Part shown: positions 24,979 to 40,227 of the stretch, in pieces | Layout: each line of letters begins with the position of its first letter | How positions within the stretch are numbered: position 1 is the stretch's first letter | NCBI GenBank assembly: GCA_003141835.1 | Contig: PLNR01000008.1 | Coordinates: 61,564 to 125,563 of the forward strand | Direction: 5' to 3' | From: Candidatus Omnitrophota bacterium | GTDB lineage: Bacteria > Omnitrophota > Gorgyraeia > Pluralincolimonadales > Pluralincolimonadaceae | Length of the DNA stretch: 64,000 nt | Made by a program: the position numbers and the translations under genes | Notes under the pieces: model-generated | The model's input: only the letters and a program-made list of their open reading frames with translations | What the model was told of the DNA's origin: nothing | Databases searched by the model: none

Positions 24979-25203
24979 ATGTGGTTTTTGCTGTTAATGC
25001 CCCTGGTTATCATGATAGCCGGCTTAGTGATATTCATTAAGCCGGCTTTTTGCATCGAATTCCAGAAGAAGTTCTACGCCAAAATTAATTGGCGCATGGA
25101 ACCCATTAATATGGAAATGGAGATCAGGAATACGAAAATCATGGGCTTGTTCCTGATTGGTGCCGCGATAGCAACGATTATCTATTTCTTAGTTAAGGGA
25201 TGA
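24979..25203 (+). CDS. small 2-TM membrane protein; duplicated as the C-terminus of 33437..34072
   Basis: 74 aa; about 80% nucleotide identity to 33860-34075. Confidence 0.5.
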   Translation: MWFLLLMPLVIMIAGLVIFIKPAFCIEFQKKFYAKINWRMEPINMEMEIRNTKIMGLFLIGAAIATIIYFLVKG

Positions 25204-28200
25204 TAATGAAAAAGGTCATCACCTACGTAGCGCTTACATTCCTTTTTATCGCAATACTGTCTTGTAGTTCCCTATTGTGTTGCCGCGCCTATTGTGCCGA
25301 TACCTGGTCATTCGCTGTCATAGGAGACACACGGGACAATGACCCAACTACTACAGGCGTGAGCCAATATCTGCCCGCGATAGCTTCTGCAATGGCCAAT
25401 CCTTCTTCTGTTATCTCCGGCGCAATTACGCCATCCGCGGCCTTCGTTAACGGCGATCTCGTAAACGGCGATAGCGCATTTTACCTCGACTACTCAACCC
25501 AATTCGCGAATTGGAAGACTGCCATGGCGCCACTTGGCAGCATACCCATATACACAGTGCGCGGCAATCACGAAAATGAAGTAACCGATTTATTGCCTAC
25601 GAGCGAAACCTTAAAGACGGCGTATTATAATGCCTTTGGGCCAACCGTTCCCCAGAACGGCCCGAATAACGGCCCAAATGATGACGAGGTGGGATTTACC
25701 TGGAACCTTTCCAGCCTTGACAGCCATATTAACCAAAAATATGTCCGCGTGATCGGGGTGGACCAATACTTTTATTATAATTCAACCGCGCAAGGCACTA
25801 GTCACTATTATCAGATAGACCAGGCGTGGCTGGATCAACAACTTATTCATTCGCCGCCCACGCGGTATACTTTCGTTATGGCTCATGAACCGTCATATTA
25901 TCTGGATAGCGGGGGCGACAATCCTGAGGGCGACTTTTATGGCACTACAAATCCGGATGGTAGTGCAAATCCGGCAGGGGTAGCTGCTCGCGGTGCATTC
26001 TGGAATTCCCTCGGCTCTAACGGCGTAAAGATGTATTTGTGTTGTCATGTGCACAATCTGCAGGTCGGCTATGCTTATGACAGCAATGGAAATAAAATTT
26101 ACCAGAACATGGCAGGTAATGGCGGCGCGCCGTTTGCATCGGCGGGCGCGACGGATCCAAACTTAACAGTCGCCTTTCAGGATTTTTCAGATTATGGATT
26201 TGCCCTTTATACGGTAACCAAAGATAACATCACTATTAACTATTACCTATACAATCCCACTTCGCTTACGTGGAGTATTTCTCCTTATTCCATTACCTTA
26301 GCGGCTGATCCCGTTAATACATGGAATACGACTTCAGGGAACTTTTCCACCGGTACCAATTGGGATATCGGCACTGCGCCGGGTGCAGGGGATACAGCGG
26401 TTTTCAACAACGGCGGCAGCGCGCCATCATCAGTTACTTTTGCGGACGGCAGCGCCACCACTAACAACAAATTGTTTGTAGCCAGCGGCGCGGTTACCTT
26501 CAACCTGGGAAACAACTCTTCATACACAGCAACTACCAGCGCAGCCATAGACGGCAGCTCGGATCCCACCTATCAGCCAAGCCTTGAGATAAAGGGAACC
26601 AATGGTTCAAGTTTTAATACGCCTTTACTGACGATGGACGGGGTTTCATCGTTTAAAGTGGATCCGGGAGCCTCTGCTACTTGCACTACAATTGATATTC
26701 AAGGCGGGACTGCCACTGTTGGAGGGGGAGGAGGTAATATAACGGTGACCAATCTTGTTGTTGACGGCGGCACCTTAGATATCCAATCGTTCGATCAGGC
26801 CGCCAACAATGTCCAGATGACCGGCGGCGCTATCACCGGTACAACTGGAATACTAACCAGCCTGAGTGCGTTCGATATGCAGGCAGGTACAGCCTCCGCC
26901 GTTCTCGCTGGTACGCATGGCCTGAATAAGACTACGGCCGGGACGGTGACGCTCTCCGGGGCCAACACATATTCAGGATTAACGACGATCTCCTCCGGCG
27001 CGTTATCCATTGCCGGCACGAATTCCTTGCCGGGTTGGAACACCAATGGCAGCTATAGTGTTGCCAATGGCGCGACTCTGGCGGTAGGGGATGGCGTGAG
27101 CGAAGCCAATGTTGGCGCCATTGGTACCCCACTCACCATACTAAACACTTCCAACTTCGCAGCCGGAGCGAACATAGGTTTAGATACCTCGGCAGGCAAC
27201 AGGAATTATGCTTCCGTTATCGGGAACACTTCGAACGGCGCGCTGGGTTTAACCAAGATAGGTACCAATACACTTACCCTTTCAGCCACTAACACCTACA
27301 CCGGCGCGACCACGCTGACGGCCGGCACGCTGAGCGCCGGCGCGACCGGAAACCTCGGCGCGGCGGCTTCCAACCTCGTCTTCAACGGCGGTACGCTGCA
27401 GATCACCGGTACGACTTTGACCAATATCTCGGGAATCGGACACACCGTCATAACCAATCCGGGTGAAACCGTCGGGCTGGATATCAACAATGCGGCCAAC
27501 ACATTCACATTCGATCAAGTCCTAAACCAGACGACCGGAGGCCTGACTAAATTGGGCGCGGGCACCTTGGTACTCAATAAAGCCAACACCTACACAGGAG
27601 CCACGACAGTCAGCGCAGGAACGTTACAAGCCGGAGTAGCCGCCCAGGCCTTTGGTAATAACTCGGTCGTGACTTTGAACAATACAGACGGAGGCGGCCT
27701 TAACCTTAATAACTTTAATAATACTATAGGTCCACTCAATGGTGTCGCAACCAGCACCGTCGTCCTCGGTTCAGGGACCCTTATGATCAGCGTCAACGCC
27801 GACACCGACAGAAGCGGTAACTATGTCGGTGTGATTTCAGGAACAGGCGGGCTGACTGTGGCAGGCACATACCCCGGCACACAAGTTTTAACGGGCGCCA
27901 ATTTGTATTCAGGCGTAACCACTATATCCGGCACAAGCACTCTCCAGATCGGTAACGCCGGGACAACAGGCACTCTAGGAACAGGTGCTGTAACAAACAA
28001 TGCTGGGTTGAAGTATAACCGGACTGATGTCGTACCGGCCATAACTAATGTTATCTCAGGAACAGGTACATTTGAACAAGCTGGGACCGGTACCGTAACT
28101 TTAAGAGGCAACAACACCTACACAGGAGCCACGATAGTCAGCGCCGGAACGCTGCAAGCGGATAATGATACTTACTTTGACTCTGTCAAAGGTGTTGGTT

Positions 28201-30011
28201 ATGGGGCTTTTGGTAATCTTTCGGCCGTGACGGTTGCAGTCGGAGCAACGCTGGATGGAAATGGTTATTACCATAATATAGGTTCACTTTCGGGGAGTGG
28301 TAAAGTGACTGAGAGCGATCCGGGCTTCCAATCATCTTTTGTTGTGGGCTGGGACAATTCTTCTACGACCTTTTCTGGAATTATAGAGGATGGCAATGGC
28401 CTAATCGACCTTACTAAAGATGGAAGCGGGACTTTTACTCTTACCGGTGCCAACACATATACCGGAGCTACCGCGATAAACGCAGGAACAGTGGTTGCCG
28501 GTAATGCCAATGCCCTCGGCAACGGATCGGCTGTTACTGTCGGGGCCGGCGGTACTCTCGACGTTGGCACCACCAATGTCACCGTTAATAATACCTATAC
28601 TCAGAACGGGACTCTAAAGGTGACCGTTGCGAGCCCGTCATCTTCCGGTAAGATAACATCCAACGCCAATGCATTTGTAGCCGCAACTAGCAGCGTCAAT
28701 GTCACTGTTGCAAACAGCACCTTCATCCCGAACAACACCACATACACGGTAGTAGACAGTTCAGGCGGAAACAACGTAAACGTCCCCGGCACGATCACAT
28801 CAAGCGATTCGCGTTTGACGTTCTCAGGCATAAGCTCAAACGGAGACCTCATTTTAACAGCTAGCCGCGCCGCAAACGGCTTCTCAAGCTTAGGCACGAA
28901 TTCTAACTCCTCTGCCGTTGGCGCTGTTTTAGATAACATCTCAGCCCCGTCCGGTGATATGTTAACCGTCTTAAATACGCTCGAAGGACTGAGCAATTCG
29001 CAGACAGAGTCAGCCCTTGCCACCTTAGTTCCTGTAGTCGACAGCGGAGTGACCAATGTCAGTAATACCGCCATCAACCAGTTCATGGGGACATCTACCG
29101 ACAGGCTAGGTGGCCTCTTCGCCCAGGCGCATAGCGAAGAGACCGGCGTCTCAACCGGAAGCAAGGGGAGCAGCGGTTTTGAGGCATGGGGCAGGGGATT
29201 CGGTGAATACGCCCACCAGGATCCCAGAGGGCTAAGCAACGGCTATCACGCCACTATCTGGGGCACGGCAATAGGAGCCGATATCCCAATCTTTAACGAC
29301 AAGGCCCGCATAGGCGCCGATGGCGGTTACGCCAGCAGCGGCGTAAATTCAAAAGATAACAGCGGTAAGACCTATATCGACAGCTACCAGTCAACCTTCT
29401 ATGGCGGCTTCACGGATCCCGAGAAACCCTACTACATAAACGGCGCCTTCTCCTTCGCCTATAACACATACAAGGGAAGAAGGAACATAGCCGTAGGCAC
29501 TATCACCAGGACCGCCAACGCAAACTATAAGGGCCAGCAATACTCCGTCTTATTCGACGGCGGATATATCTTTAAGACCAAACAAGTCAATATAACCCCC
29601 ATAGCCTCTATCCAGTACCTGCGCCTAAACCTCCATAGCTACACCGAGACGGGCGCAGATGCTCTCGATTTAAGTGTCAAAGGCCAGGGCTACAACCTAT
29701 TGGAATCCGGCCTGGGCGCAAAGTTCGACCGTCCATTTGAGGTCTCCTACGGCACTATAGCACCCGAGGTCCACGTCCGCTGGTTTTACGATATAATAAC
29801 CGATAAACAATCCACCACGTCTACCTTCGCAGGCGGCGGCGGTTCATTCGCCACCAACGGATTCAATCCCGCGCGCAACGCCTTAAATGTCGGGGGAAAA
29901 ATAGCCCTTCTCACAAAAGGCAACTGGAGCTTTGACGCCAATTACGACTTCGAATACAAACAGGACTTCACTTCCCATACGGGATGGGCGGATATCGCAT
30001 ATAAGTTTTAG
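25200..30011 (+). CDS. giant autotransporter: N-terminal calcineurin-like metallophosphoesterase domain, PATR repeats, C-terminal beta-barrel
   Basis: VRGNHEN and GDxVNGD metallophosphatase motifs; PATR units; C-terminal 520 aa ~87% identical to the preceding autotransporter. Confidence 0.75.
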   Translation: MIMKKVITYVALTFLFIAILSCSSLLCCRAYCADTWSFAVIGDTRDNDPTTTGVSQYLPAIASAMANPSSVISGAITPSAAFVNGDLVNGDSAFYLDYSTQFANWKTAMAPLGSIPIYTVRGNHENEVTDLLPTSETLKTAYYNAFGPTVPQNGPNNGPNDDEVGFTWNLSSLDSHINQKYVRVIGVDQYFYYNSTAQGTSHYYQIDQAWLDQQLIHSPPTRYTFVMAHEPSYYLDSGGDNPEGDFYGTTNPDGSANPAGVAARGAFWNSLGSNGVKMYLCCHVHNLQVGYAYDSNGNKIYQNMAGNGGAPFASAGATDPNLTVAFQDFSDYGFALYTVTKDNITINYYLYNPTSLTWSISPYSITLAADPVNTWNTTSGNFSTGTNWDIGTAPGAGDTAVFNNGGSAPSSVTFADGSATTNNKLFVASGAVTFNLGNNSSYTATTSAAIDGSSDPTYQPSLEIKGTNGSSFNTPLLTMDGVSSFKVDPGASATCTTIDIQGGTATVGGGGGNITVTNLVVDGGTLDIQSFDQAANNVQMTGGAITGTTGILTSLSAFDMQAGTASAVLAGTHGLNKTTAGTVTLSGANTYSGLTTISSGALSIAGTNSLPGWNTNGSYSVANGATLAVGDGVSEANVGAIGTPLTILNTSNFAAGANIGLDTSAGNRNYASVIGNTSNGALGLTKIGTNTLTLSATNTYTGATTLTAGTLSAGATGNLGAAASNLVFNGGTLQITGTTLTNISGIGHTVITNPGETVGLDINNAANTFTFDQVLNQTTGGLTKLGAGTLVLNKANTYTGATTVSAGTLQAGVAAQAFGNNSVVTLNNTDGGGLNLNNFNNTIGPLNGVATSTVVLGSGTLMISVNADTDRSGNYVGVISGTGGLTVAGTYPGTQVLTGANLYSGVTTISGTSTLQIGNAGTTGTLGTGAVTNNAGLKYNRTDVVPAITNVISGTGTFEQAGTGTVTLRGNNTYTGATIVSAGTLQADNDTYFDSVKGVGYGAFGNLSAVTVAVGATLDGNGYYHNIGSLSGSGKVTESDPGFQSSFVVGWDNSSTTFSGIIEDGNGLIDLTKDGSGTFTLTGANTYTGATAINAGTVVAGNANALGNGSAVTVGAGGTLDVGTTNVTVNNTYTQNGTLKVTVASPSSSGKITSNANAFVAATSSVNVTVANSTFIPNNTTYTVVDSSGGNNVNVPGTITSSDSRLTFSGISSNGDLILTASRAANGFSSLGTNSNSSAVGAVLDNISAPSGDMLTVLNTLEGLSNSQTESALATLVPVVDSGVTNVSNTAINQFMGTSTDRLGGLFAQAHSEETGVSTGSKGSSGFEAWGRGFGEYAHQDPRGLSNGYHATIWGTAIGADIPIFNDKARIGADGGYASSGVNSKDNSGKTYIDSYQSTFYGGFTDPEKPYYINGAFSFAYNTYKGRRNIAVGTITRTANANYKGQQYSVLFDGGYIFKTKQVNITPIASIQYLRLNLHSYTETGADALDLSVKGQGYNLLESGLGAKFDRPFEVSYGTIAPEVHVRWFYDIITDKQSTTSTFAGGGGSFATNGFNPARNALNVGGKIALLTKGNWSFDANYDFEYKQDFTSHTGWADIAYKF
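28440..30011 (+). repeat. ~1.57 kb repeat, copy 2 of the autotransporter C-terminal region (copy 1 at 23389..24958)
   Basis: Long colinear near-identical DNA, about 87-90% identity. Confidence 0.85.
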
Positions 30012-30034: not shown

Positions 30035-30364
30035 ATGAGGATCTGGGATATAGCGCCCGGAAGGTTATGCCGCAACCATCTCTTGGGCGAGCACAGGGAA
30101 CTCCACGCCATCTGGTCTGTCCTGACGCGCAACAAGAAGGGGTATTCCCGCCATCCCGAGACCTTAAGGTGGAAGGGCAGGTTAAAGGCGCTGTATTCAA
30201 GGCACACGAAGCTCGTCAACGAACTTAAACGGCGTGGCTACCTCCACCACAGCCCTCTTGATTCCCGGCTGGCGAAAGGGAAGGGGAGGCAGACGCGGTT
30301 CGTCAATTCAGTCGGCGAACAGATCAAGATTTTGAGCAGGAAAAACTGCGGCTGTAAGATTTAA
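30035..30364 (+). CDS. pyrimidine-dimer DNA glycosylase (T4 endonuclease V-like) family protein, putative
   Basis: N-terminal MRIWDIAPGRLCRNHLLGEHRELHAIW resembles T4 DenV MTRINLTLV...HLMAEYRELPRV. Confidence 0.5.
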   Translation: MRIWDIAPGRLCRNHLLGEHRELHAIWSVLTRNKKGYSRHPETLRWKGRLKALYSRHTKLVNELKRRGYLHHSPLDSRLAKGKGRQTRFVNSVGEQIKILSRKNCGCKI

Positions 30365-30377
30365 TAGGTAAGGCCAT

Positions 30378-30465
30378 TAAAATAATCATAACCCTCTGCG
30401 ATTATAACTGTTGCAGGGGATTTTTATTAAGAGTAGAATTAATCCTAACGAGGCGTTCCAAAGTT
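30378..30465 (+). repeat. direct repeat A (~85 bp, includes a terminator hairpin) after the glycosylase-like gene
   Basis: taaaataatcataaccctctgcgattataactgttgcaggggatttttattaagagtagaattaatcctaacgagg; about 92% identical to repeat B. Confidence 0.8.
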
Positions 30466-30520
30466 ACTCGCTCCAAGAATTAATTTCATTGGTTACGGAG
30501 AAGAGGAGATTTAGAAAATT

Positions 30521-31057
30521 ATGAAATACGTGACCGCTATGTTCGATTGGATAATGAGAAATAAGGAATGGATCTTTAGCGGTGTTGGAGTCGTGCTCAT
30601 AGGGTGGTTGGTCTTGGCGGTGCGCAGGTTTTTATTCATGCGACGAACTTCAAGTTCGTTGATTGAAGGGGCGACTCTTAGAGAAATAATCGAGAGTCCT
30701 GCGGTTGTGTCATCATCCGACATCGCCAACTTAACTTCTTCTCTTACCCCGAAGCAAATCATTGAAAATATAAAGGCTCTTCCGCTCCTCCAACAGCAGG
30801 ATGCCGGCAAACACTATATTGGTCTTGCTGTGAAATGGGATGGAGAGCTTGCCGATGCGAGGAAAATAGCTGAGAATTCGGTACAACTTTATATCTTACA
30901 CGGCTCAAGCAGTACAGGCTTTTTTTTAAAGGTTAACCCAAGCGACTATCCTGGGCTTAGTCTTCTAAAGAAAGGGGCTCATGTTGAGGTAGATGGCCTG
31001 ATTGAGGAAGCAGGAGCAATGTGGGTGACGCTTAATAACGCGCACATTCGCTTTTAG
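30521..31057 (+). CDS. hypothetical protein with N-terminal TM anchor
   Basis: 178 aa, low GC, one TM helix, then a soluble domain. Confidence 0.5.
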   Translation: MKYVTAMFDWIMRNKEWIFSGVGVVLIGWLVLAVRRFLFMRRTSSSLIEGATLREIIESPAVVSSSDIANLTSSLTPKQIIENIKALPLLQQQDAGKHYIGLAVKWDGELADARKIAENSVQLYILHGSSSTGFFLKVNPSDYPGLSLLKKGAHVEVDGLIEEAGAMWVTLNNAHIRF

Positions 31058-31087
31058 TATTTACTCAGCACATTATTTATGTAGGGC

Positions 31088-31150
31088 AATAAGGGACGTG
31101 TCAAAAAGGGACAGGTCGCATAAACAGAGTGTCCCAAAGTGACACGTCTC
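31088..31150 (+). promoter_or_regulatory. nested-palindrome leader element, copy 1
   Basis: GGACGTGTCA-aaaa-GGGACAG-N15-TGTCCC-aaag-TGACACGTC, preceded by TAATAAGG; ends about 35 nt before the RBS of 31187. Confidence 0.6.
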
Positions 31151-31186
31151 CGAAAAACCCATACCTTGGCATAAAGGAGGTGCTTA

Positions 31187-31591
31187 ATGAATATTCCGGA
31201 AAAAGAACAGTATAAATACCTTACTCACCATCTTGAATATCTTAATGATAAGATTCTAGGATCGTTTGAATTATTCATTAAACTCGCTACGGCAATTATC
31301 GGTGGTGTATTTCTTCTTCATTGGAAACTTGCAGAGAACCATAATAATGGAGATTCACTTGTTTTGATGTCTGATATGCTGTTTTGCATTGTCGGCGTAA
31401 GTATCATAGCCCTTATATGGATTAATCTTTGTGCTTGGCGATCATATCGAAAAACTCTCTCTAAAGAATATCCAGCTATTAAGCTTTCGAATCCTTTCTT
31501 ATGGTGGATAGGTGAAGCCATAATGAGTTTACTTATAATTATAACGTGTATATTATTTTGTCTCTTAAATCCTCTGAATAGTTTTTGTTAG
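31187..31591 (+). CDS. hypothetical multi-TM membrane protein
   Basis: 134 aa with 3 predicted TM helices. Confidence 0.5.
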   Translation: MNIPEKEQYKYLTHHLEYLNDKILGSFELFIKLATAIIGGVFLLHWKLAENHNNGDSLVLMSDMLFCIVGVSIIALIWINLCAWRSYRKTLSKEYPAIKLSNPFLWWIGEAIMSLLIIITCILFCLLNPLNSFC

Positions 31592-31595
31592 AGTA

Positions 31596-31658
31596 ATAAG
31601 GGGACGCGTCAAAAAGGGACAGGTTGCATAAGCAGAGTGTCCCAAAGTGACACGTCCC
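31596..31658 (+). promoter_or_regulatory. nested-palindrome leader element, copy 2
   Basis: One substitution relative to copy 1; precedes the RBS of 31694. Confidence 0.6.
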
Positions 31659-31693
31659 CAAACGCATAAAATCGCGCAAAAAGGGAGGTTGGA

Positions 31694-32287
31694 ATGAAAA
31701 GGGCGATAGTAATTTTTTTGGTAGCGTCATGTTTTCTTGAAGGTTGTGCATCTTATCATGCGGGGCTTTTGCCATCAAAAGATGTAATGAATTATGATAA
31801 TAAGCAAGTTCAAAATAACGTTTATGTCGTAGCAAAATTTTTGAATGCAAGAGAAACAAAACAAGTCTTTCAATTTGATCTAGAAAATAAGGGTATCCAG
31901 CCCACTTTTATTGTTATGGATAACAGAAGTCCTAAAACCTACGATTTCAAAAAATCAGACATAAATAAACAGATAATGTCTTCGCAAGAGGTAGCTGATA
32001 AATGCAAATTTAGTACTGTCGGACGAGCAACAACTTATGGAGTAGTGGGATTATTCATTTGGCCATTCTTAATTCCAGCAGTAGTCGATGGCGTAGGATC
32101 ATCGGAGGCGAACAGAAAAATTGAAGACGATTATGCTTATAAAGAATTGCAGGATGGAAGATTAATGCCAAATGCTCTCATGAACGGAGTTGTTTTCGTG
32201 TCTAAAATGAAAGAAGGAGAGGATTTTACCATAAGATTAAAAGATGTTGATACAAATGAAATTCTAAGATTTAGTTTTCAGAAGTGA
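31694..32287 (+). CDS. hypothetical lipoprotein
   Basis: Signal peptide with an FLEGC lipobox. Confidence 0.5.
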   Translation: MKRAIVIFLVASCFLEGCASYHAGLLPSKDVMNYDNKQVQNNVYVVAKFLNARETKQVFQFDLENKGIQPTFIVMDNRSPKTYDFKKSDINKQIMSSQEVADKCKFSTVGRATTYGVVGLFIWPFLIPAVVDGVGSSEANRKIEDDYAYKELQDGRLMPNALMNGVVFVSKMKEGEDFTIRLKDVDTNEILRFSFQK

Positions 32288-32335
32288 GTCACATTAGGTC
32301 GCATAAGCAGAGCGTCCTAAAGTGACACGTCCTCA
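32287..32335 (+). promoter_or_regulatory. nested-palindrome leader element, copy 3 (5' arm truncated)
   Basis: ggtcgcataagcagagcgtcctaaagtgacacgtcc matches the 3' half of copies 1 and 2. Confidence 0.5.
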
Positions 32336-32377
32336 AAATTAACCACGAAGAAACGCTATAATTAAAAGGTGTGAGAT

Positions 32378-33316
32378 ATGACTTTAATAATGTCAGCTAT
32401 TACCTCCTCGGGTATCGTTCTAACTGCCGATAGTAGACAGTCCTATAAAAATGGAGCAGGGGCAATTCGCATTGGTTCTGATAATGCATTGAAGCTTTTT
32501 AAGCTTTCCGATTATATTGGAGTTTCTATTTCAGGTAAAGCCTTTCTTAATGGGGAAAACCAATCGGTCAAAGACGTCGGATATTTTATTAATAAATTTA
32601 AACAAACAGAGGATCTAAAAGAACTAACAATCCGAGATGTTGCTAATAAACTAAATAAATATCTCGGTGACCTTTTTGTTGAGAAAGAAAGAGTATCTTT
32701 GAAAAAGCTTATTGAGGAACAAGTTACAAAGCTTGGTGGTAAAGATTTAGTTTTTCTTCCAATGGACGATTCTTTGGTTCCATATTCATATAAAGATAAG
32801 GACGGCAAGGTGATTTCAAATACAGCAATGATTGAGACAATTAATATGATTGTGGCAGGCATTGATAAGGACAAGGTAGGAAGAGCTTACTCAGTTTGGG
32901 TTCCTAAAGGGATAACGCTGGAAAAAGATACTCAGCTGTGCGGTGCTTTGTGGTGCGGTCAGAATGATGTTATCATTCGAATTGTCAAAGGATTTACACT
33001 GGAGATAGAAAAACTTAATTTTATAAAAGAGGCTCTAGCAAAAGATAACGCCTCAACTATCAGCCAGCTAAATAAAATGGAGTACATTATTAATTGGGGA
33101 ACAATGACCATCCAAGATGCGATAGATTTTTGCGTATTAATGACCCGTACTACCGAAAGCATACAGAGGTTTTCTGATGGTACCTTTTTACAACCTGGTG
33201 GTATTCCCGGCGTTGGTGGGGAGATTGATATAGCTGTTATTACACCTGAAAAAGGATTCCGTTGGCTTAAAAAGAAAAAATTGGAATCTGAGGGGGAAGA
33301 GCTTTCTTTAGAGTAA
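32378..33316 (+). CDS. proteasome-beta/HslV-like Ntn-hydrolase family protein with a C-terminal extension
   Basis: Thr directly after the initiator Met. GIVLTAD with Asp at position 17 of the Met-processed protein. KLFKLSDYIGVSISGKA parallels proteasome-beta KKIFKIDDHIGVAFAG. Confidence 0.5.
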   Translation: MTLIMSAITSSGIVLTADSRQSYKNGAGAIRIGSDNALKLFKLSDYIGVSISGKAFLNGENQSVKDVGYFINKFKQTEDLKELTIRDVANKLNKYLGDLFVEKERVSLKKLIEEQVTKLGGKDLVFLPMDDSLVPYSYKDKDGKVISNTAMIETINMIVAGIDKDKVGRAYSVWVPKGITLEKDTQLCGALWCGQNDVIIRIVKGFTLEIEKLNFIKEALAKDNASTISQLNKMEYIINWGTMTIQDAIDFCVLMTRTTESIQRFSDGTFLQPGGIPGVGGEIDIAVITPEKGFRWLKKKKLESEGEELSLE

Positions 33317-33363
33317 GAATGGAATATCAGCAAAATAGAATATAATAAGGAACGTGGGCGATA

Positions 33364-33430
33364 GGGGACGTGTCAAAAGGGCAAGGTCCCTTCGCAAAGG
33401 GAGACAGGTTATAAAAATGACACATGACAG
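33364..33430 (+). promoter_or_regulatory. nested-palindrome leader element, copy 4 (diverged)
   Basis: GGGGACGTGTCAAAAGGG ... TGACACATGACA, preceded by TATAATAAGG. Confidence 0.5.
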
Positions 33431-33436
33431 ATCTAA

Positions 33437-34072
33437 ATGAGTAAACCTGAAGAGGAATCAAGCGAAGTAAAAAATAGCAGCCGGAATATTCTTATACTTG
33501 ACGTATTGGGCATGGCTGTTATATTTATTCTTTTTATGATTGTTCGTGACAAATTTGGGCAAATTTTTAAAGAAATGGACGTGCCTGCAACGTTATCTTA
33601 TAGAATATTAATCGAACCCCACCCTGTCGTGCTTATTGTCGAATTCATTATAATCATAGCCATTCTCATTCTTAAAGAGAGAGTAATAAGGAATAAAAGC
33701 ATAACGTATTATATTAATAGCATAATTTTAGTAGTATTAGTTTTATCTATTCTCTTTTTCGGATATTCTGCTTTTTTCTTGCCCTTGATTCCTCTAATTA
33801 CGGAACTACAATCAAGGTCCAGTTTTTTCGATAAGTTCGGGTATCTTTTTAGTTATAATATAGTTGTTCCGTTAGTCATCTTAATAGCCGGCTTAATAAT
33901 ATTTATTAAGCCGGTTTCTTGTATCGAGCTCCAAAAAAAGTTTTACGAAAAGATCAACTGGCGCATGGAGCCGATCAATATGGAAATGGAGATCAGAAAT
34001 ACAAAAATCATGGGCTTATTTTTAGTCGGCGCATCCCTAGCAACAATTGTCTATTTTTTGATTAAAGGATAA
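33437..34072 (+). CDS. hypothetical multi-TM membrane protein; C-terminal 70 aa duplicate the 24979..25203 product
   Basis: 211 aa; C-terminal ...IFIKPVSCIELQKKFYEKINWRMEPINMEMEIRNTKIMGLF... Confidence 0.55.
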   Translation: MSKPEEESSEVKNSSRNILILDVLGMAVIFILFMIVRDKFGQIFKEMDVPATLSYRILIEPHPVVLIVEFIIIIAILILKERVIRNKSITYYINSIILVVLVLSILFFGYSAFFLPLIPLITELQSRSSFFDKFGYLFSYNIVVPLVILIAGLIIFIKPVSCIELQKKFYEKINWRMEPINMEMEIRNTKIMGLFLVGASLATIVYFLIKG

Positions 34073-34074
34073 TA

Positions 34075-34395
34075 ATGGAAAAAATTATTGGACAAGCGGG
34101 TAATCTAAACGATTTGGTAGCTTATCAGGAAGGCTCAATCGTAAGCAAAGAGATAATAAAAAAGGACATAGGCACGGTAACCCTTTTTGCCTTTGACAAG
34201 GGGCAGGGGTTGAGCGAACACACCGCGCCGTTTGATGCCCTGGTTTATATCTTTGACGGCGAAGCGGAAATAATGATTTCCGGCCTGCCACATCATTTAA
34301 AGGCAGGCGAGATCATCATAATGCCTGCGAATAAGCCGCACGCCTTAAAAGCGATAGAACGTTTCAAGATGATGCTGGTTATGATTAGGTCTTAA
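34075..34395 (+). CDS. cupin domain protein
   Basis: 106 aa small-barrel cupin pattern (G...H.H....E...V..G). Confidence 0.55.
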   Translation: MEKIIGQAGNLNDLVAYQEGSIVSKEIIKKDIGTVTLFAFDKGQGLSEHTAPFDALVYIFDGEAEIMISGLPHHLKAGEIIIMPANKPHALKAIERFKMMLVMIRS

Positions 34396-34407
34396 AGAGA
34401 AAAGTCT

Positions 34408-34495
34408 TAAAAATAATCATAACCCTCTGCAATTATAACTGTTGCAGAGGGTTTTTGTTAAGAGTAGAATAAATCCCAACGAGGTCTTACAAAGT
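34408..34495 (+). repeat. direct repeat B (~85 bp) with a perfect 10-bp-stem terminator hairpin
   Basis: CCCTCTGCAA-ttataact-gTTGCAGAGGG plus TTTTT, then ttaagagtagaataaatcccaacgagg. Confidence 0.8.
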
Positions 34496-34525
34496 GGCGC
34501 ATATTCAAAACCATAAGCGTGCTTA

Positions 34526-35248
34526 ATGTTGAGAGTGCCCCGATTTTTAAATAGACTTGCAATTGGTTTTAATAGTGATAGAATCAAAGAAAAAGGAGCA
34601 CAGATGGGCGTCAAGAAGAATTTATGGTTGTTTGTATTTAATGTTGTCTGCCTAGTTATTGCTATTGTTTTGTGTAGTGGGTTTATGTATTATTTTTGCG
34701 TAGCGAACCCATCTAACATTGTTTATGCAAAAGAAGATAGTTCCGCGGAGAAGGTTGAATTAAATAAACAGGAAATTAGTAAATTACAGAAGGATGATTT
34801 AAGTAATCAGGACTCTAAACAATCGGCAGTTGTTGAGGAGAAAACCGATAAGACTACGGTTTCCCTCGTTTTAAATAAAGAGAATGAAGCAATTATAAAA
34901 AATATGGAACGACGTAATAGTTTTCTCGAATTTTATATAGGGCAGATTATAAGCTTTTATCAACAAGTTATTACTTATTTATTAGGAGTAATTGGTGTTT
35001 TATTAGTCATCAGCTTTATGTATATACGTTTTACGTCTAAGCAACAAACTGAGGAGATGGCAAATGAAGCATTGAACTCAAAATCCTTCCAGATAATTCT
35101 ACAAAATCTGGTTAAGAAAGAATATGCTGAAGCGTTAAAATCAGGTGATTTTGTGGAAATGTCTAGTAAAATACCTGATTTAGCTGATAGGGTAACTGAG
35201 CTTGAGAAGATAATGAACGCAAAAGATGATGATGAAATTCAGGAATAG
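34526..35248 (+). CDS. hypothetical membrane protein with coiled-coil segments
   Basis: Two TM helices and K/E-rich regions. Confidence 0.45.
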   Translation: MLRVPRFLNRLAIGFNSDRIKEKGAQMGVKKNLWLFVFNVVCLVIAIVLCSGFMYYFCVANPSNIVYAKEDSSAEKVELNKQEISKLQKDDLSNQDSKQSAVVEEKTDKTTVSLVLNKENEAIIKNMERRNSFLEFYIGQIISFYQQVITYLLGVIGVLLVISFMYIRFTSKQQTEEMANEALNSKSFQIILQNLVKKEYAEALKSGDFVEMSSKIPDLADRVTELEKIMNAKDDDEIQE

Positions 35249-35257
35249 GGGTGAAAA

Positions 35258-35812
35258 ATGGGAATAATTAGAGAGAAATGTTTTGCTCCTGACTGTTCTA
35301 TCGCATCTAGCAATATTGATTTATATGATACTCCGGAGAAATTATTTGCTTTTGCAAGTTCTCAAGGCATTCCTACTGTGCCTTTAGACGTAGAGAAATT
35401 AGCCAATAAAATGGGTATCAAAATAGAATACGCTGATTTTCCAAATGATTTATCGGGGGAACTTATCAAGGATCCGGCAACTAATCATTGGGTTATCTAT
35501 GTGAATAAAAATCATCATATTAATAGGCAAAGATATACTATCGCACATGAAATAGCTCATTTTTGTCAGCACAGGCACTTGAAATATAGATTTGAAGACG
35601 AAATATTTTTTAGGGGTGGTGAATCATACGACAAGGAAGAAACGGAAGCAAATAATTTCGCTAGTTCTATACTTATGCCAGAACAAGAATTTAAAACTAA
35701 AGTTCGTTCGGGAATTAGGAAAATAGAAGAATTAGCTGGGATATTTAAGGTCTCAACCTTAGCCCTAAGAATAAGGGCAAAAAATCTCGGCATGTCAGGA
35801 CACGGGTTATGA
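35258..35812 (+). CDS. ImmA/IrrE family metallo-endopeptidase
   Basis: HEXXH at IAHEIAHF with the downstream Glu typical of COG2856; ATGA overlap with the next gene. Confidence 0.75.
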   Translation: MGIIREKCFAPDCSIASSNIDLYDTPEKLFAFASSQGIPTVPLDVEKLANKMGIKIEYADFPNDLSGELIKDPATNHWVIYVNKNHHINRQRYTIAHEIAHFCQHRHLKYRFEDEIFFRGGESYDKEETEANNFASSILMPEQEFKTKVRSGIRKIEELAGIFKVSTLALRIRAKNLGMSGHGL

Positions 35813-36894
35813 AGAATATATCATATGCTCCGATAATAAAAACTAGTGATGCGGAAATCAGGGGGATTGAAAACCTTGATGATGACGATAAGGATGGAAT
35901 TACTCCAATTTTTGAATTGACAAAATCAAGAAAATCAAAATATCTTCCTCAGGGTGATATATATAGAAGGCTAGAAAAGCTTAAAGATGTATTTGGTGCT
36001 AGGCGTTTCATATTAGATTTAACAAGTGATCGTAATTCTATAAATGAACAAATTGAAGAATTGCAAGATAATCATGGCGGATATAAAAATTGGATTGATT
36101 TCCTAATTTTGCAAAAGAATGATTTTCCTGAATTAATACCAACAATACAGATTACTGATAAGGGAGTTAAGACTGAAGAAGAATTGTATAATAGAGTTAA
36201 GGTACAGGTTGAAGCGTTAAACAGGAATTTTGCCGAAGTTGCTTACAGGTTTCCTTTGGAATATGAAGATTTTACGACCGACCTCAAGCATATAATTGAT
36301 AATATCTCTAAAGATAAAATTATTTGTATCGTTGATGCTGGATTCATTACGCAAGGGAAATCAGGAATCTATATAACAAAAGCAAGGAGTGTTATTGCAG
36401 AAGTAAAAAAATTTGGGATTAAAAATATAATATTATCAGCTACTTCCTTTCCAAGGAATCCGACTCAATACGGCGGTGAGGAGACAGGAGAGTGCCAATT
36501 AGAAGAGTGTTTATTTTATAATGGCGCAAGAGAAGAAAAATCTAATATCAGTTTTATCTATGGAGATTATGCCACGATTAATCCGATAAGAAGCGATCAA
36601 GCAGGTGGCAATGGATGGGTTCCGAGAATAGATATGCCTACAGAAGATGAACTTTTTTATTATAGATCTAGAAAACGCAAGCAAGAATTGACATATGCTA
36701 ACGCTTATACAAGAGTCGCACACTCTGTGGCTAGCGACCAAAGATATAAAAATATAAAGAAAAAAATCAGGGATTGCTGGGGAATTGAGCAGATTGAATT
36801 AGCCGCAAAAGGCACCCCAGAAGGATTATCACCATCCTTCTGGATCTCAGTTAGAATGAACATCCACATAACAATAAAAAATAAAATGCATTAA
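35809..36894 (+). CDS. Beta family protein (T4 beta-protein-like; sce7725-like)
   Basis: N-terminal YAPIIKTSDAEIRGIENL...ITPIFELTKSR and RRFILDL fit my recollection of the Beta_protein N-terminal pattern; 361 aa. Confidence 0.55.
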   Translation: MKNISYAPIIKTSDAEIRGIENLDDDDKDGITPIFELTKSRKSKYLPQGDIYRRLEKLKDVFGARRFILDLTSDRNSINEQIEELQDNHGGYKNWIDFLILQKNDFPELIPTIQITDKGVKTEEELYNRVKVQVEALNRNFAEVAYRFPLEYEDFTTDLKHIIDNISKDKIICIVDAGFITQGKSGIYITKARSVIAEVKKFGIKNIILSATSFPRNPTQYGGEETGECQLEECLFYNGAREEKSNISFIYGDYATINPIRSDQAGGNGWVPRIDMPTEDELFYYRSRKRKQELTYANAYTRVAHSVASDQRYKNIKKKIRDCWGIEQIELAAKGTPEGLSPSFWISVRMNIHITIKNKMH

Positions 36895-37523
36895 ACATAT
36901 AACTTATCAATTATTCCGCATAAACCTCGTAAATCATCCCATACGATTTTTCCTTCGGTATCCCTCAAGAGAAGCCTAAAAAGTTTATAGTAACGTTTCT
37001 TAAGATATGAATAAGCAGCTGTGCGGATTTTACTTGTGGTCAGCTGGTGGCTAAGCTTTTCCCGTATTTCATCTGTAGATAGCTTTCGGATATTTCTTGA
37101 GGTGCATAGGCTGAGCAGTTCAATCTTAGGCAAGAATATCAAAAGAGAACGCTTATCCAATTTTTTATTTAATCTCGCTATTTTTATAACCTTAAATTTA
37201 TCGTTATTAAATAGAATTAGTCCGGTGTTTTGAGTAATAATATTTTTAATCTTGTTAACATTCTTTATAGTGGTTATTACAGATACTTTGTCAAATGTAT
37301 TATGATAATCGTTTAGCTGCATTTTAAGTTTTCTTGGATCGTCAGAATCACTTTTTATTTCAAGGGTATGTGTTTTGTTTGAAATAATTAATAAGTCGGC
37401 TTTTCGCCTATTAGCAGAAAACAAAACTTCAGTAGCAATAGCATCCTTCGACTTATTAAAATTAAGATTGCCCCTTAATAACCATCTTATTGCTTTTGTT
37501 TTTATTAGTTCTGCTTTATCCAT
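36891..37523 (-). CDS. sce7726-like putative PD-(D/E)xK nuclease-fold protein
   Basis: RKADLLIIS...LEIKSDSD D-(x)n-E-x-K pattern; convergent with the Beta gene, stops overlapping by 4 bp. Confidence 0.5.
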   Translation of the reverse strand: MDKAELIKTKAIRWLLRGNLNFNKSKDAIATEVLFSANRRKADLLIISNKTHTLEIKSDSDDPRKLKMQLNDYHNTFDKVSVITTIKNVNKIKNIITQNTGLILFNNDKFKVIKIARLNKKLDKRSLLIFLPKIELLSLCTSRNIRKLSTDEIREKLSHQLTTSKIRTAAYSYLKKRYYKLFRLLLRDTEGKIVWDDLRGLCGIIDKLYV

Positions 37524-38134
37524 AGTTAAATGTTATCTCGCAATAATATAAAAATAATACGATCGAATATCCTTGTTGTATTTTTTGTTTTTTTAGTAAC
37601 CGATATTATACTTTAATTTAATAAAATATTCACTACAAGAGGTAATTGTGATGGTAGGCTACCTGCAATGTGTTAGTCCCAAAGGTCAAATGCATAATCT
37701 TGTGAGAATAAAGTTGTTTAAGAACAGGGCGCCGATAGTAAGAGCTAAGTTACCTTATGCCTTCACAAAGAAGTGAAAGCACTTGGCGTTCTTAGGGTAG
37801 ATTACTCTACCGTTCCGCCGAATGTATCGGCAGTACACCTCAACGCCAGGAGTTAATCCCGAACCGCGGTTATCCCGCTTTTCAGCATTAAACCTTCGTT
37901 GCATACTTTTGTCTCCTTTCCGGGGGCTAATTTTTACCTTACGCAACCCCTCAAAAAGAAGAAAATAAGATTAAGAAAATGATTTCAGGAGGGGGGTAAG
38001 TAGGAAATTAGCCTAGAAAAGAAGACATCGTAGCCCCGGAGATTTTGCTCCTTAGTTTGTCCTACCGGCACCCAAAGAACAAGTTTCTATGCTATAAATA
38101 CTACAAATTAGTCGTAAAGTCAATCTAAAAATTC

Positions 38135-38163
38135 TTGACACCCACACAAATGTGTGGTATACT
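38135..38163 (+). promoter_or_regulatory. lexA promoter TTGACA-17-TATACT with a CCACACA-aa-TGTGTGG palindrome in the spacer (candidate SOS box)
   Basis: Consensus -35, perfect 7-bp inverted repeat at 38142-38157, -10 ending 7 nt before the ATG at 38171. Confidence 0.55.
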
Positions 38164-38170
38164 CCTGCCT

Positions 38171-38719
38171 ATGAAACCCCAAGTAGAATTAACCGCCAAG
38201 CAAGAGAAGGTCCTGAAATTTATCCGCGAAAGAGTGGGGGAGAACCTGCCTCCGACCATAAGGGAGATAGCAGGGGAGATGGGCTTTGCTTCCACAGGAA
38301 CGGTTAGGGATTATCTTGCGGCGCTTCAAAGAAAGGGTTACCTCAAACGCGAAAATAACAAATCCCGGGGCATAGCGTTAATAGGAAGTATTGCGGCCGG
38401 GGAGCCGAAATTGGCCTATGAAGATATCGAGGGCTATGTCGAGATCGCCCGGGAGAATACCTTTGCCTTGAAGGTCAAAGGCGAAAGCATGATAGACGCC
38501 GGCATTATGGACGGCGACATAGCGGTCATCAGGAAACAGAAGACGGCCGATAACGGCGATATCATCGCCGCGTTACTGGACAATAACGAAGTCACCTTAA
38601 AAAGACTCAAGACCGGCGGCGGCAAGCCATTCCTGGAAGCAGCGAACAAGAAATATCCCCCGATACATAAAGAATTCAGCATCATAGGCAAACTTGTCAA
38701 TATAGTAAGAAAATATTAA
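38171..38719 (+). CDS. lexA: LexA repressor
   Basis: N-terminal wHTH (MKPQVELTAKQEKVLKFIRE), S24 peptidase GESM Ser and downstream Lys; start moved to a typical LexA Met. Confidence 0.85.
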   Translation: MKPQVELTAKQEKVLKFIRERVGENLPPTIREIAGEMGFASTGTVRDYLAALQRKGYLKRENNKSRGIALIGSIAAGEPKLAYEDIEGYVEIARENTFALKVKGESMIDAGIMDGDIAVIRKQKTADNGDIIAALLDNNEVTLKRLKTGGGKPFLEAANKKYPPIHKEFSIIGKLVNIVRKY

Positions 38720-38722
38720 GCG

Positions 38723-39055
38723 ATGGCGATATCAGGCTTCAACCCAAAGGCGCGCTGGGACCGACACCCTCTTGGCAGAGGGCAAGCTATCCCCGAGACC
38801 GAAGACAGTGTCGACCCCGGGATACTGGACGAAAAGATAGAAGTCCTGGCATATTTCAAGGGCTCAGCGATATTTCCCCGCGCGTTCATCCGCAATAACA
38901 AGGTCCACAGGATAAAAAAGATCACCTATAACTGGCAGGAACGCCGCGGCCGGGAGGTCCTGAACCTGTTTTCGGTGGACACCGGGACCTGCCTCTACCA
39001 GATATCATTTAATAACACGACCTACCGCTGGCAGATCGACAAGATAATAGCATGA
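38723..39055 (+). CDS. hypothetical 110-aa protein between lexA and dinB (possible polymerase accessory factor)
   Basis: Operon position only; no recognisable motif. Confidence 0.45.
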   Translation: MAISGFNPKARWDRHPLGRGQAIPETEDSVDPGILDEKIEVLAYFKGSAIFPRAFIRNNKVHRIKKITYNWQERRGREVLNLFSVDTGTCLYQISFNNTTYRWQIDKIIA

Positions 39056-40227
39056 TCCTGCACATAGACATGGACGCTTTTTTCGCGTCCGTTGAACAGG
39101 CCATCAACCCGCGGCTTAAAGGCAAGCCCCTGATAGTGGGCACGCGCGAAAGGAAGCTCCACACGGTCGTTTGCGCGGCCAGTTATGAAGCCAAGGCCTT
39201 AGGGATAGGCTCAGGGATGTCTTCTGAGGAGGCCTTTAAAATATGCCCGGACCTCAATTTTGTCCCGGCAGAACAAAGCAAGTATATATGGACCTCGGGC
39301 CGGATATTGGAGCTCATCAAGGGATACGGGTTCGAGACCGTATATGTTTCGATAGATGAGTTCCAAATTGATGTAGGGGATCAGGGACAGTCCCCAAATG
39401 GGGGCTGTCCCTCTTACGCCGTGGCTTTGGCCGAAGATATCCGCAGCAAAATACACAAAAACTTCAACATCACAGCTTCCGTAGGCATAGCGAAAAATTG
39501 CCTCCTTGCCAAACTCGCCTCAAAGTTAAACAAGCCAAACGGTGTAGCTGTTTTGACCGAAGCCAATTTAGCCGAAATTTTGGCCAAAACACCGGTCGAA
39601 AAATTATGCGGGGTGGGGGAAAAGACAGCCGAAATCTTCCATGATTTGGGCATCAAAACCTGCCTGGACCTGTACGCCAAAACGCCCAAATTCCTGGAGC
39701 GGAATTTAGGCAAGAACGGGCTCAATCTTTACGCGTCTTTGCATTCCGAAGAGTCGCTTGAGCCGGCTGATGATGACCCGGATCCAAAATCCGTAGGCCA
39801 TTCATATACCTTGCCGAGATCCACAGAAAATCCCGGGTTTATCCGCGCCTGGATACGCCTTTTGGCCGATATGGTCGGTGAGCGCCTAAGGCAGCAAGGC
39901 CTGGCAGCAGCGACAACACACCTATGGCTGAACGGGCCAAAAATAGGCAATTTTGGGGCCCAAAAGACATTCCCGGAAGCCACTAATGACGGCTGTGAGA
40001 TATTCCGGAGAGTACTTGTTAATATGTCCAAATTAGGGCCGCAAACGCCCAAAACAAGAGCTTTAGGCGTAACCTGCAGTAGTTTCACACATACCAGGTA
40101 TTTGCCTTTATTTGACCAACAGAAGAGCCGGGAATCGCTCCTGGAGGCGGTAGACAGGATCAATGACCGCTACGGAGACGGCTCGATTTATCCCGCCGCG
40201 ATCACTTTAACCAGGGAAATGCCTTAA
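39052..40227 (+). CDS. dinB: Y-family DNA polymerase IV
   Basis: MILHIDMDAFFASVEQ with catalytic Asp pair; SIDE catalytic Glu. Confidence 0.8.
   Translation: MILHIDMDAFFASVEQAINPRLKGKPLIVGTRERKLHTVVCAASYEAKALGIGSGMSSEEAFKICPDLNFVPAEQSKYIWTSGRILELIKGYGFETVYVSIDEFQIDVGDQGQSPNGGCPSYAVALAEDIRSKIHKNFNITASVGIAKNCLLAKLASKLNKPNGVAVLTEANLAEILAKTPVEKLCGVGEKTAEIFHDLGIKTCLDLYAKTPKFLERNLGKNGLNLYASLHSEESLEPADDDPDPKSVGHSYTLPRSTENPGFIRAWIRLLADMVGERLRQQGLAAATTHLWLNGPKIGNFGAQKTFPEATNDGCEIFRRVLVNMSKLGPQTPKTRALGVTCSSFTHTRYLPLFDQQKSRESLLEAVDRINDRYGDGSIYPAAITLTREMP

Follow-up and report, generated by a model that had tools for sequence, protein, structure and literature searches.

What does an ImmA/IrrE-type protease gene do when it is translationally coupled to a Beta-family gene, converges with a nuclease-like gene and has no HTH repressor beside it? 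The question is raised by a locus in a 64,000-nucleotide stretch of a Candidatus Omnitrophota genome (the window, the whole stretch of DNA that was analysed). The original prediction, made from the letters of the window, described a three-gene module of uncharacterised architecture, possibly a phage-defence or abortive-infection switch. We find that the window genes are part of a self-contained, horizontally mobile four-gene cassette.

Extent and conservation of the cassette

The module starts one gene earlier than predicted (at 34604) and comprises four genes. Genes for a membrane protein, a Peptidase_M78 protein and Beta follow one another on the same strand, and a cII gene is convergent at the 3' end of this operon (ORF calls). 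The whole cassette occupies 34544-37539, with no strand assigned. Its limits come from a comparison with a locus in another Omnitrophota metagenome-assembled genome (L002): by blastn the two align as a single 3025-nt block of 76.6% identity at exactly these window positions, and the flanks beyond it are unrelated. No conserved flanking gene was found across 51 related loci.

Related loci were collected with one conserved Beta peptide pattern as the query, and the survey therefore samples this subfamily and not all Beta proteins, which number ~1,964 cluster representatives. Among the related genome loci for which upstream DNA was available, the genes for the transmembrane (TM) protein, M78 and Beta are present in 48 of 48 and cII in 41 of 48. 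M78 is directly 5' of Beta in every one of the 48, usually with an overlap of 4 or 1 nt, and the 3' ends of Beta and cII overlap in most related loci. For these reasons the arrangement of the three originally predicted genes, and with it the expected linkage of protease and Beta, is not due to chance. The cassette genes overlap or are close-set throughout the related loci, and the convergent layout is kept in most of the 41 that bear cII. Active-site motifs are also kept: HExxH in all 48 M78 proteins, ExxAN.FA in 47 of them and D...ExK in 44 of 44 cII homologues. Neither a fifth conserved gene nor a substitute for cII in the loci that lack it was found among the related loci.

Promoter and membrane protein

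The operon is predicted to have its own promoter, as a consensus match only. A promoter scan identified a putative sigma-70-like element (TTGCAA, 16 nt, TG-TAGAAT), followed by the ribosome-binding site AAAGGAG, at 34557-34584 on the forward strand. The hexamers and the ribosome-binding site are kept in L002; the sequence farther upstream is not.

Gene 1 (34604-35248, forward strand) encodes a membrane protein of 214 aa whose place in the cassette is that of gop in P4, recognised through jackhmmer homologues and TM prediction. Its start is Met27 of the longest ORF, in agreement with database gene calls (P0174, 214 aa) and with L002. Two TM segments, TM1 (nt 34622-34702) and TM2 (nt 34946-35026), are separated by a polar loop. 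The C-terminal part beyond TM2 (residues ~142-214) is predicted to form a coiled coil on the cytoplasmic side and to end in an acidic stretch. A homologue is found directly 5' of M78 in all 48 genome loci (jackhmmer); of 11 viral M78-type loci, 10 have one there as well. The protein belongs to no family in Pfam, PADLOC or NCBIfam.

Homology to Gop was considered and rejected, as none of BLASTP, jackhmmer, hhalign (probability <1%) or the PADLOC gop model supported it. That model recovers P4 Gop at 4.8e-70 and leaves the window membrane protein unmatched even at E<=1. P4 Gop and the Gop-position protein of Pasteurella phage Pmp11 are also not alignable (E 0.17), and the M78 protein has no similarity to Gop. 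We use "Gop equivalent" for gene 1 only as an analogy of position and of TM/coiled-coil design.

A minimal protease without a repressor

Gene 2 (35258-35812, forward strand) starts 9 nt after gene 1 and encodes a minimal ImmA/IrrE-type zinc metallopeptidase of 184 aa, as originally proposed from its HEIAH motif (Pfam Peptidase_M78, PF06114: E 1.1e-21, 77.4 bits, cutoff 22). The catalytic motif spans residues 97-101 (H97, E98 and H101; 35546-35560, forward strand), and the third zinc ligand is E130 (35645-35647, forward strand), where an EANNFA motif starts. These residues correspond to H97, E98, H101 and E128 of CapP (PMC13228613). The best PADLOC match is capP (1.1e-34), confined to positions 11-152 of the 242-position profile, and the closest solved structure is also CapP (7t5t, E 2.6e-5), in a PDB alignment that spans residues 63-155 of the 291-residue CapP.

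With the profile match ending at position 152 of 242, gene 2 is without a GAF domain, and no Pfam HTH was found in it. In CapP, the partner of CapH, a C-terminal GAF domain forms a groove for ssDNA, and many members carry a cysteine switch (PMC13228613). Lacking the GAF domain, the gene 2 protein would therefore lack the ssDNA-binding interdomain groove of CapP and IrrE (PMC13228613). The pairwise alignment has a gap, and no cysteine, at the CapP switch-loop cysteine. No HTH repressor gene is present in the cassette, as had been noted for the immediate neighbourhood, and none is conserved beside it in 53 related loci; HTH_3 occurs in 2 of 127 flanking proteins. The cassette thus has the M78 catalytic core in common with CapP/CapH, IrrE/DdrO and ImmA/ImmR, along with a setting in immune or mobile-element operons. 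Unlike these protease-repressor switches, it has neither an HTH substrate gene nor the switch-loop cysteine, and its protease gene lies within the effector operon, not divergent from it.

Beta and cII

Gene 3 (35809-36894, forward strand) shares an ATGA with gene 2 at 35809-35812, an overlap legible in the sequence, and encodes a Beta-family protein of 361 aa (Pfam Beta_protein, PF14350: E 6.1e-53, 181 bits, cutoff 27); both features had been recognised from the outset. It matches the PADLOC models "beta" (3.4e-49) and PD-Lambda-2_C (6.8e-21), and P4 beta itself by BLASTP (E 3e-34). The family had been ascribed to T4, which is incorrect: its founder is from P4, and when 50,697 phage records were searched by tblastn, P4 and Pmp11 alone yielded Beta homologues. 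In a Beta tree the M78-linked proteins form one large multi-phylum clade, apart from the P4 type. Modelling predicts that the protein folds as a (beta/alpha)8 TIM barrel and that conserved polar residues sit at the C-terminal ends of its strands. Strands 1-3 and 5-8 of the barrel carry the conserved K11, E36, D70, R147, D176, S213 and D253, either within the strand or at its ends.

Gene 4 (36891-37523, reverse strand) encodes a cII-like, sce7726-family protein of 210 aa with a PD-(D/E)xK nuclease fold. It is the convergent gene of the original prediction, and a shared TTAA at 36891-36894 holds its stop codon and that of Beta. The protein matches NCBIfam sce7726_fam (E 5e-30, 104.8 bits, cutoff 70), PADLOC cll (1.2e-26) and P4 cII (BLASTP E 1e-18); P4 cII also matches the sce7726 model (151 bits). 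A restriction-endonuclease-like fold and a D...(D/E)xK motif are both present, the latter as D43 ... E55-I-K57 (37353-37397, reverse strand). Beta and cII are 28-29% identical to their P4 counterparts. Judged by gene content, cII is a dispensable cassette member, missing from 7 of the 48 loci.

Peptidase_M78, Beta_protein and sce7726 were thus all matched above their cutoffs, and the view that Beta and sce7726 genes occur as conserved pairs in mobile contexts stands. The naming of Beta as sce7725-like does not: of the NCBIfam pair models for sce7725/sce7726 (NF033831/NF033832), sce7725 is unmatched at E<=10 by either the window Beta or P4 beta.

Distribution and genomic setting

The cassette was found in at least ten phyla and on viral contigs, and is carried on islands, prophages and plasmids; gammaproteobacterial orthologues include those of Shewanella and Vibrio. 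M78-type loci make up 11 of the 16 Beta loci in IMG/VR; the plasmid and phage collections contribute few members, with 3 and 4 records, respectively. Of the forms in the sample surveyed, the cassette has by far the widest taxonomic spread. The flanks of related loci are variable and rich in restriction-modification genes and integrases; they include DNA methyltransferases, restriction enzymes, HsdS, integrases, resolvases and CI-like repressors.

The window cassette lies inside an island of 35% GC in a genome of 51% GC. No recognised defence genes are among its own neighbours in the window, and a search of the island and its surroundings for RNA elements gave no hit to Rfam at E<=0.1. Cassette-like repeats near the window cassette have bipartite hairpins of attC shape; as regards an integron, no GTTRRRY/RYYYAAC core was seen in these neighbouring repeat sequences.

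Relationship to known defence systems

The gop-beta-cII system of P4 confers protection from lambda and P1, and in the absence of beta its Gop is toxic (Rousset et al., 2022, PMC9122126). Gop is a small membrane killer and beta its antidote, and the system is without any protease (PMC9122126); a phage gene sets off the cell death (bioRxiv 10.1101/2023.04.06.535777). The trigger of this system is orf184. Like the P4 system (gop_beta_cll in PADLOC), the cassette encodes homologous Beta and cII, has its membrane protein and Beta genes co-directional with cII convergent at the 3' end, rides mobile elements and probably follows a toxin-antitoxin-like logic. Unlike it, the cassette has an M78 zinc protease gene between those for the membrane protein and Beta. 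Its membrane protein is longer than Gop (214 vs 133 aa), has a long loop between its two TM segments and could not be shown to be homologous to Gop, and its Betas, in their separate clade, come from many phyla, whereas the P4 type is found in Enterobacteria and Pasteurella. The PADLOC models "beta", "cll" and "gop" are the P4 proteins, and since PADLOC v2 has no model that fits the cassette membrane protein, the cassette gives no match for the gop part of the P4 system.

PD-lambda-2 of E. coli combines a HigB-like protein with an HTH-M78 fusion and Beta, and acts by abortive infection (Vassallo et al., 2022, PMC9519451). In this system too a Peptidase_M78 domain and a Beta-family protein are encoded in one operon, and abortive-infection-type defence is what we propose for the cassette. 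Unlike the 184-aa cassette protease, that of PD-lambda-2 is fused to an Xre HTH (~400 aa), and the similarity is weak both for M78 (PD-Lambda-2_B, E 1.6e-7, positions 291-366 of 402 only) and for Beta (PD-Lambda-2_C, E 6.8e-21). The first gene there encodes a homologue of HigB-like RNase toxins, here a two-TM membrane protein, and PD-lambda-2 is without cII. A literature search found no paper describing a cassette of M78, Beta and sce7726. What appears to be new is the insertion, between Beta and a membrane protein in the Gop position, of a minimal M78 protease that has neither an HTH nor a GAF domain. The architecture as a whole is less isolated than first supposed, in that gop-beta-cII and PD-lambda-2 are already known relatives.

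Proposed function

We predict, with moderate confidence, that the cassette is a toxin-antitoxin-like abortive-infection anti-phage system of the Beta-protein class, with a membrane effector, Beta as its restraint or sensor and the protease as trigger. A role in phage defence was part of the original prediction, and we infer that it is the best reading given the validated P4 gop-beta-cII and PD-lambda-2 relatives. The mechanism of such a switch can be outlined by inference. The two-TM coiled-coil protein, in the slot of Gop, would be the toxic effector. Beta would restrain it or sense a phage cue, a role suggested by the neutralisation of Gop by P4 beta and the requirement for Beta in PD-lambda-2 defence; it probably works through a conserved pocket, for a ligand or for catalysis, on the C-terminal side of the barrel. 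The minimal ImmA-like protease, made stoichiometric with Beta, would be the switch. Upon infection it may cleave a partner encoded in the cassette (Beta, or the effector in its cytoplasmic tail), which would release membrane damage and kill or arrest the infected cell. Because cII is absent in some lineages, it may be an accessory, DNA-directed component. Bacterial gasdermins are membrane effectors activated by adjacent proteases, and the proposed logic is similar in that an adjoining protease would license a membrane-damaging protein, the cleavage being hypothetical here; the cassette membrane protein is not known to be related to gasdermins in sequence or fold.

The M78 protein of PD-lambda-2 is itself toxic and Beta is not its antitoxin, and therefore the roles assigned here could be permuted. 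HTH-M78 alone is toxic in that system, the upstream gene neutralises it, and Beta is needed only for defence (PMC9519451). M78 in the cassette would then be a toxic effector with a host target, and the membrane protein or Beta would hold it inactive or sense infection at the envelope. We consider this unlikely. The strict conservation of the protease active site is consistent with it, but Gop kills and beta is the antidote in the protease-free P4 system (PMC9122126), the window Beta is far nearer the P4-type model than PD-Lambda-2_C (165 vs 73 bits), and no partner is more universally conserved than the membrane protein.

An addiction module that stabilises its own mobile DNA, with no role in phage defence, would account for the toxin-antitoxin behaviour of Gop and beta, for carriage on mobile elements and for the lack of recognised defence genes around the window cassette. 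It is nevertheless improbable: both characterised relatives protect measurably against phage, four conserved enzymatic or structural components are more than addiction needs, and restriction-modification genes often adjoin related cassettes.

The conserved pocket of Beta and the intact nuclease motif of cII could also indicate a restriction-modification-like pair, in which Beta modifies DNA or nucleotides, cII is the cognate nuclease, and the protease and membrane protein are regulators. This is quite doubtful, since the transglycosylase matches to Beta are no better than those to dozens of unrelated TIM barrels, cII is missing without replacement from 7 of 48 cassettes and is also missing from PD-lambda-2, and the P4 toxicity that beta counters stems from Gop and not from cII.

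We give very little credence to a three-gene unit in which a signal-activated ImmA-like protease controls the Beta/sce7726 pair through an unlinked HTH repressor: canonical ImmA, IrrE and CapP proteases do cleave HTH repressors (PMC13228613) and capP is the best PADLOC match, but the flanks of 53 loci show no conserved HTH gene, the protease has neither the GAF domain nor, in the pairwise alignment, the switch cysteine, it is invariably accompanied by the membrane protein and Beta but not by cII, and a host-specific repressor would be unusable for an element that moves between phyla.

Implications

The cassette links gop-beta-cII and PD-lambda-2, two systems that are validated, mechanistically unsolved and catalogued separately. 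It pairs Beta and cII of the P4 type, laid out as in P4, with a protease that elsewhere is seen only in PD-lambda-2. The cassette would escape standard annotation, as no PADLOC v2 model fits its membrane protein and the protease is labelled capP. Three handles are available for its study: a strictly conserved zinc-protease active site, a predicted TIM-barrel pocket in a so-called antitoxin, and a dispensable nuclease.

ImmA/IrrE-type proteases can thus be conserved parts of an effector operon without an HTH repressor, outside the protease-repressor paradigm. Rather speculatively, M78 and Beta may form an ancient, portable sensor-switch, in which Beta, as a TIM-barrel enzyme, would bind or convert a small molecule or a substrate derived from phage and thereby gate a repressor-independent ImmA-like protease that licenses a membrane killer, and P4 and PD-lambda-2 would be reduced or rewired derivatives of a four-gene ancestor. 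If this tentative idea is true, one mechanism would explain two defence systems that are validated but unexplained, and ImmA/IrrE proteases would have a new, non-transcriptional use.

Gene content of the cassette

The locus is a new and widespread variant of a known sort of anti-phage system; its architecture is not categorically new, and it comprises more than three genes. The observations of the original prediction are confirmed, and its interpretation is partly supported. An ORF scan places the three genes that it described precisely where it had put them, and HMM searches support the families that it proposed. The genes encode a 184-aa Peptidase_M78/ImmA-IrrE protein (35258-35812, + strand; Pfam E 1.1e-21, 77 bits vs. 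a gathering score of 22), a full-length 361-aa Beta_protein (PF14350; 35809-36894, + strand; Pfam E 6.1e-53) and a 210-aa cII-like protein (36891-37523, - strand; NCBIfam sce7726, 104.8 bits vs. a cutoff of 70). In the protease, HEIAH occupies residues 97-101, and EANNFA, the motif with the third zinc ligand, starts at residue 130; the cII-like protein has the motif D43...E55-I-K57. The start/stop overlap of protease and Beta (ATGA) and the TTAA common to the convergent Beta and cII stop codons are both readable in the sequence.

The prediction of a three-gene module missed a membrane-protein gene directly upstream of the protease (longest ORF 34526-35248, + strand), which makes the unit one of four genes. 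Its true start is almost certainly Met27 (34604), as the public-database call (P0174, 214 aa) and the closest relative agree on this position. Its stop and the start of the protease gene are 9 nt apart, and the gap holds the Shine-Dalgarno sequence GGGGTG.

Conservation, boundaries and hosts

A survey of relatives of Beta, with each species represented by one genome, yielded 51 loci whose ORFs were searched with phmmer and jackhmmer; 48 contain DNA upstream. M78 is directly upstream of Beta in 48/48 of these loci, and a homologue of the membrane protein is directly upstream of M78 in the same 48. The cII-like gene occurs in 41 of the 48, mostly convergent with overlapping 3' ends and at times co-directional or upstream; the seven loci that lack it are all Alphaproteobacteria, and no replacement gene was found in them. 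HExxH is kept in all 48 proteases, the third-ligand motif in 47 and D...ExK in 44/44 cII proteins. No conserved flanking gene was found beyond the cassette among the surveyed loci. The window shares with the closest relative, an Omnitrophota MAG, a single 3,025-nt DNA block (76.6% identity) that corresponds exactly to 34544-37539 and takes in a conserved putative promoter (-35 and -10) and RBS 5' of the membrane-protein gene; outside it the flanks are unrelated.

Cassette hosts include Omnitrophota, Planctomycetota, Elusimicrobiota, Bacillota, Bacteroidota, Melainabacteria, Ignavibacteriota, Bdellovibrionota, Campylobacterota, and Alpha- and Gammaproteobacteria. The M78-Beta cassette is also on 11 of 16 Beta-encoding IMG/VR viral contigs (10 of the 11 have the membrane-protein gene, and the remaining contig ends upstream) and on a Persicobacter plasmid. 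The commonest families among 127 flanking proteins are phage integrases, resolvases, DNA methyltransferases, DpnII, HsdS, CI-like S24 repressors and Fic.

The Neorhizobium plasmid pNCHU2750c has a divergent version of the M78-type cassette, in which the membrane protein seems to resemble Gop more closely. Its intact M78 peptidase ORF (3468-3968 of locus L053; CP030830.1 about 36992-37492, - strand; PADLOC capP 2.3e-30), flanked by the genes for a 160-aa two-TM protein and for Beta, is missing from the supplied gene table, which is known to be incomplete.

Relation to P4 gop-beta-cII and PD-lambda-2

The PADLOC models hit by the window proteins are 'beta' (3.4e-49) and, less strongly, PD-Lambda-2_C for Beta, 'cll' for the nuclease-like cII protein, and capP together with a weak PD-Lambda-2_B match for the protease. 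The models 'gop', 'beta' and 'cll' represent proteins of satellite phage P4, in which gop (133 aa, + strand), beta (355 aa, + strand, 3 nt downstream) and convergent cII (264 aa, - strand) have the same layout as in the window. Identity to P4 is 28% for Beta (E 3e-34) and 29% for cII (E 1e-18). The gop-beta-cII system protects E. coli from lambda and P1, and Gop is described as toxic without beta (Rousset et al., PMC9122126); its cell-death activity is triggered by a phage accessory gene (Silas et al., bioRxiv 10.1101/2023.04.06.535777). PD-lambda-2, an Abi system, encodes a HigB-like protein, an M78 protein fused to an Xre HTH, and a homologue of Beta; the M78 protein alone is toxic and is neutralised by the first gene, and defence requires Beta (Vassallo et al., PMC9519451). 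Thus, both striking pairings, Beta with sce7726 and M78 with Beta, are already known from validated systems, and the architecture is not wholly uncharacterised, contrary to what had been proposed. A literature search found no description of a system that combines these pairings with this membrane protein and a protease lacking an HTH.

In a rough neighbor-joining tree of Beta proteins, every M78-linked Beta belongs to a single large clade that spans many phyla. The P4-type proteins without a protease (P4, Pasteurella phage Pmp11 and five viral contigs) form a separate clade, to which the Neorhizobium M78-containing locus is basal. The beta-cII pairs of Pmp11 and of the five contigs are directly 3' of a temperate-phage CI-like (HTH-S24) repressor gene, a classic moron or superinfection-exclusion position, with a Gop-position membrane protein present or absent. 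The Beta family is modest in size overall (at E<=1e-3, 1,964 of 1.84 billion clusters built at 50% identity; at E<=1e-30, 241). It is sometimes labelled 'T4 beta protein', a name that the original prediction followed, but tblastn against 50,697 phage records gave no T4 homologue and matched only P4 and Pmp11; the family founder is P4 beta.

Features of the four proteins

The catalytic residues of the protease correspond to CapP H97/E98/H101/E128. The protein consists of the peptidase domain and a short helical tail, without the GAF domain from which CapP and IrrE build their ssDNA-sensing groove; at the position of the CapP switch cysteine there is a gap. Also lacking is any neighbour resembling CapH, ImmR or DdrO, in line with the reported absence of an HTH partner. 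Thus, the protease is a member of Peptidase_M78 outside the CapP/CapH, IrrE/DdrO and ImmA/ImmR two-component switches.

The AlphaFold2 model of Beta (63 homologues, pLDDT 95.5) predicts a (beta/alpha)8 pattern, C-terminal to which are a beta-hairpin and a helical bundle; no sequence homologue was found in the PDB. Residues conserved across the family, P4 included (K11, E36, D70, R147, D176, S213 and D253), are predicted within barrel strands 1, 2, 3, 5, 6, 7 and 8 or at their C-terminal ends, while R273, D275, R286 and R349 belong to the C-terminal extension. Such a pattern points to a pocket for catalysis or ligand binding, and the Beta 'antitoxin' is therefore probably an enzyme or a small-molecule sensor. 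The cII-like model (pLDDT 89.7) has a helical C-terminal half.

The membrane protein has TM segments at residues 7-33 and 115-141 separated by a polar loop, then a predicted cytoplasmic coiled coil and acidic tail. It matched no known family (including Pfam and PADLOC) and has no homology to Gop detectable by methods including hhalign. In design the cassette family is like Gop and the upstream proteins of Pmp11 and Neorhizobium: all have TM segments at the N-terminus, then a coiled coil in the cytoplasm and an acidic tail.

Genomic context

The cassette is inside a low-GC island (30361-38000; 34-37%, ~35%, vs. ~51% for the genome). Also in the island are consecutive small genes, all on one strand and all without PADLOC matches. 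They encode TM proteins, a lipoprotein, a 312-aa protein (32378-33316) with weak proteasome-beta/Ntn-hydrolase similarity (E 3e-4), a multi-TM protein and a cupin. A 62-nt repeat lies 3' of each small gene (31093-31154, 31601-31662, 32276-32337; partial copy 33356-33381), with no further copies in the rest of the 64 kb. As ssDNA it folds into a bipartite hairpin (z-scores -4 to -6.8; outer stem 9-11 bp, symmetric 4x4 internal loop, inner stem 6 bp, ~16-nt loop) whose shape recalls integron attC sites; no GTTRRRY/RYYYAAC core was seen in the repeat sequences. The small-gene part is flanked by a 104-nt direct repeat (30361-30464 and 34392-34495, 84% identity), the second copy of which holds a strong hairpin terminator (34421-34453) directly 5' of the putative cassette promoter. 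On the left, a 1603-aa ORF (25200-30011) abuts the island; in translation it resembles an autotransporter rich in repeats, with a metallophosphoesterase-like region at the N-terminus.

An SOS-type cluster (38135-40227) begins 0.6 kb past the cassette and, judged from translations, contains lexA (38135-38719), a 110-aa ORF (38723-39055) and a dinB-like polymerase IV gene (39052-40227). This adjacency is not conserved in other genomes and is therefore probably coincidental.

Proposed function

Membership of the cassette in the Beta-class defence family is well supported. We propose that it would act as an abortive-infection switch in which the membrane protein serves as effector in the role of Gop, a moderately supported assignment based on its position, the P4 precedent and its universal conservation. 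Beta would restrain the membrane protein or sense the cue. The protease, translationally coupled to Beta, would turn the signal into a step that cannot be reversed, through cleavage of Beta or of the cytoplasmic tail of the effector, although the choice of these substrates is a guess. The cII protein may be an accessory component directed at DNA.

The main rival keeps the defence function and makes the protease the toxin, for which PD-lambda-2 is the precedent. Less likely are a pure addiction module, a restriction-modification-like pair formed by Beta and cII, and the repressor-dependent protease of the original prediction.

As a probable defence system of the Beta class, the cassette bridges two unexplained systems, gop-beta-cII and PD-lambda-2, and is a clear example of an ImmA/IrrE protease conserved without any repressor.
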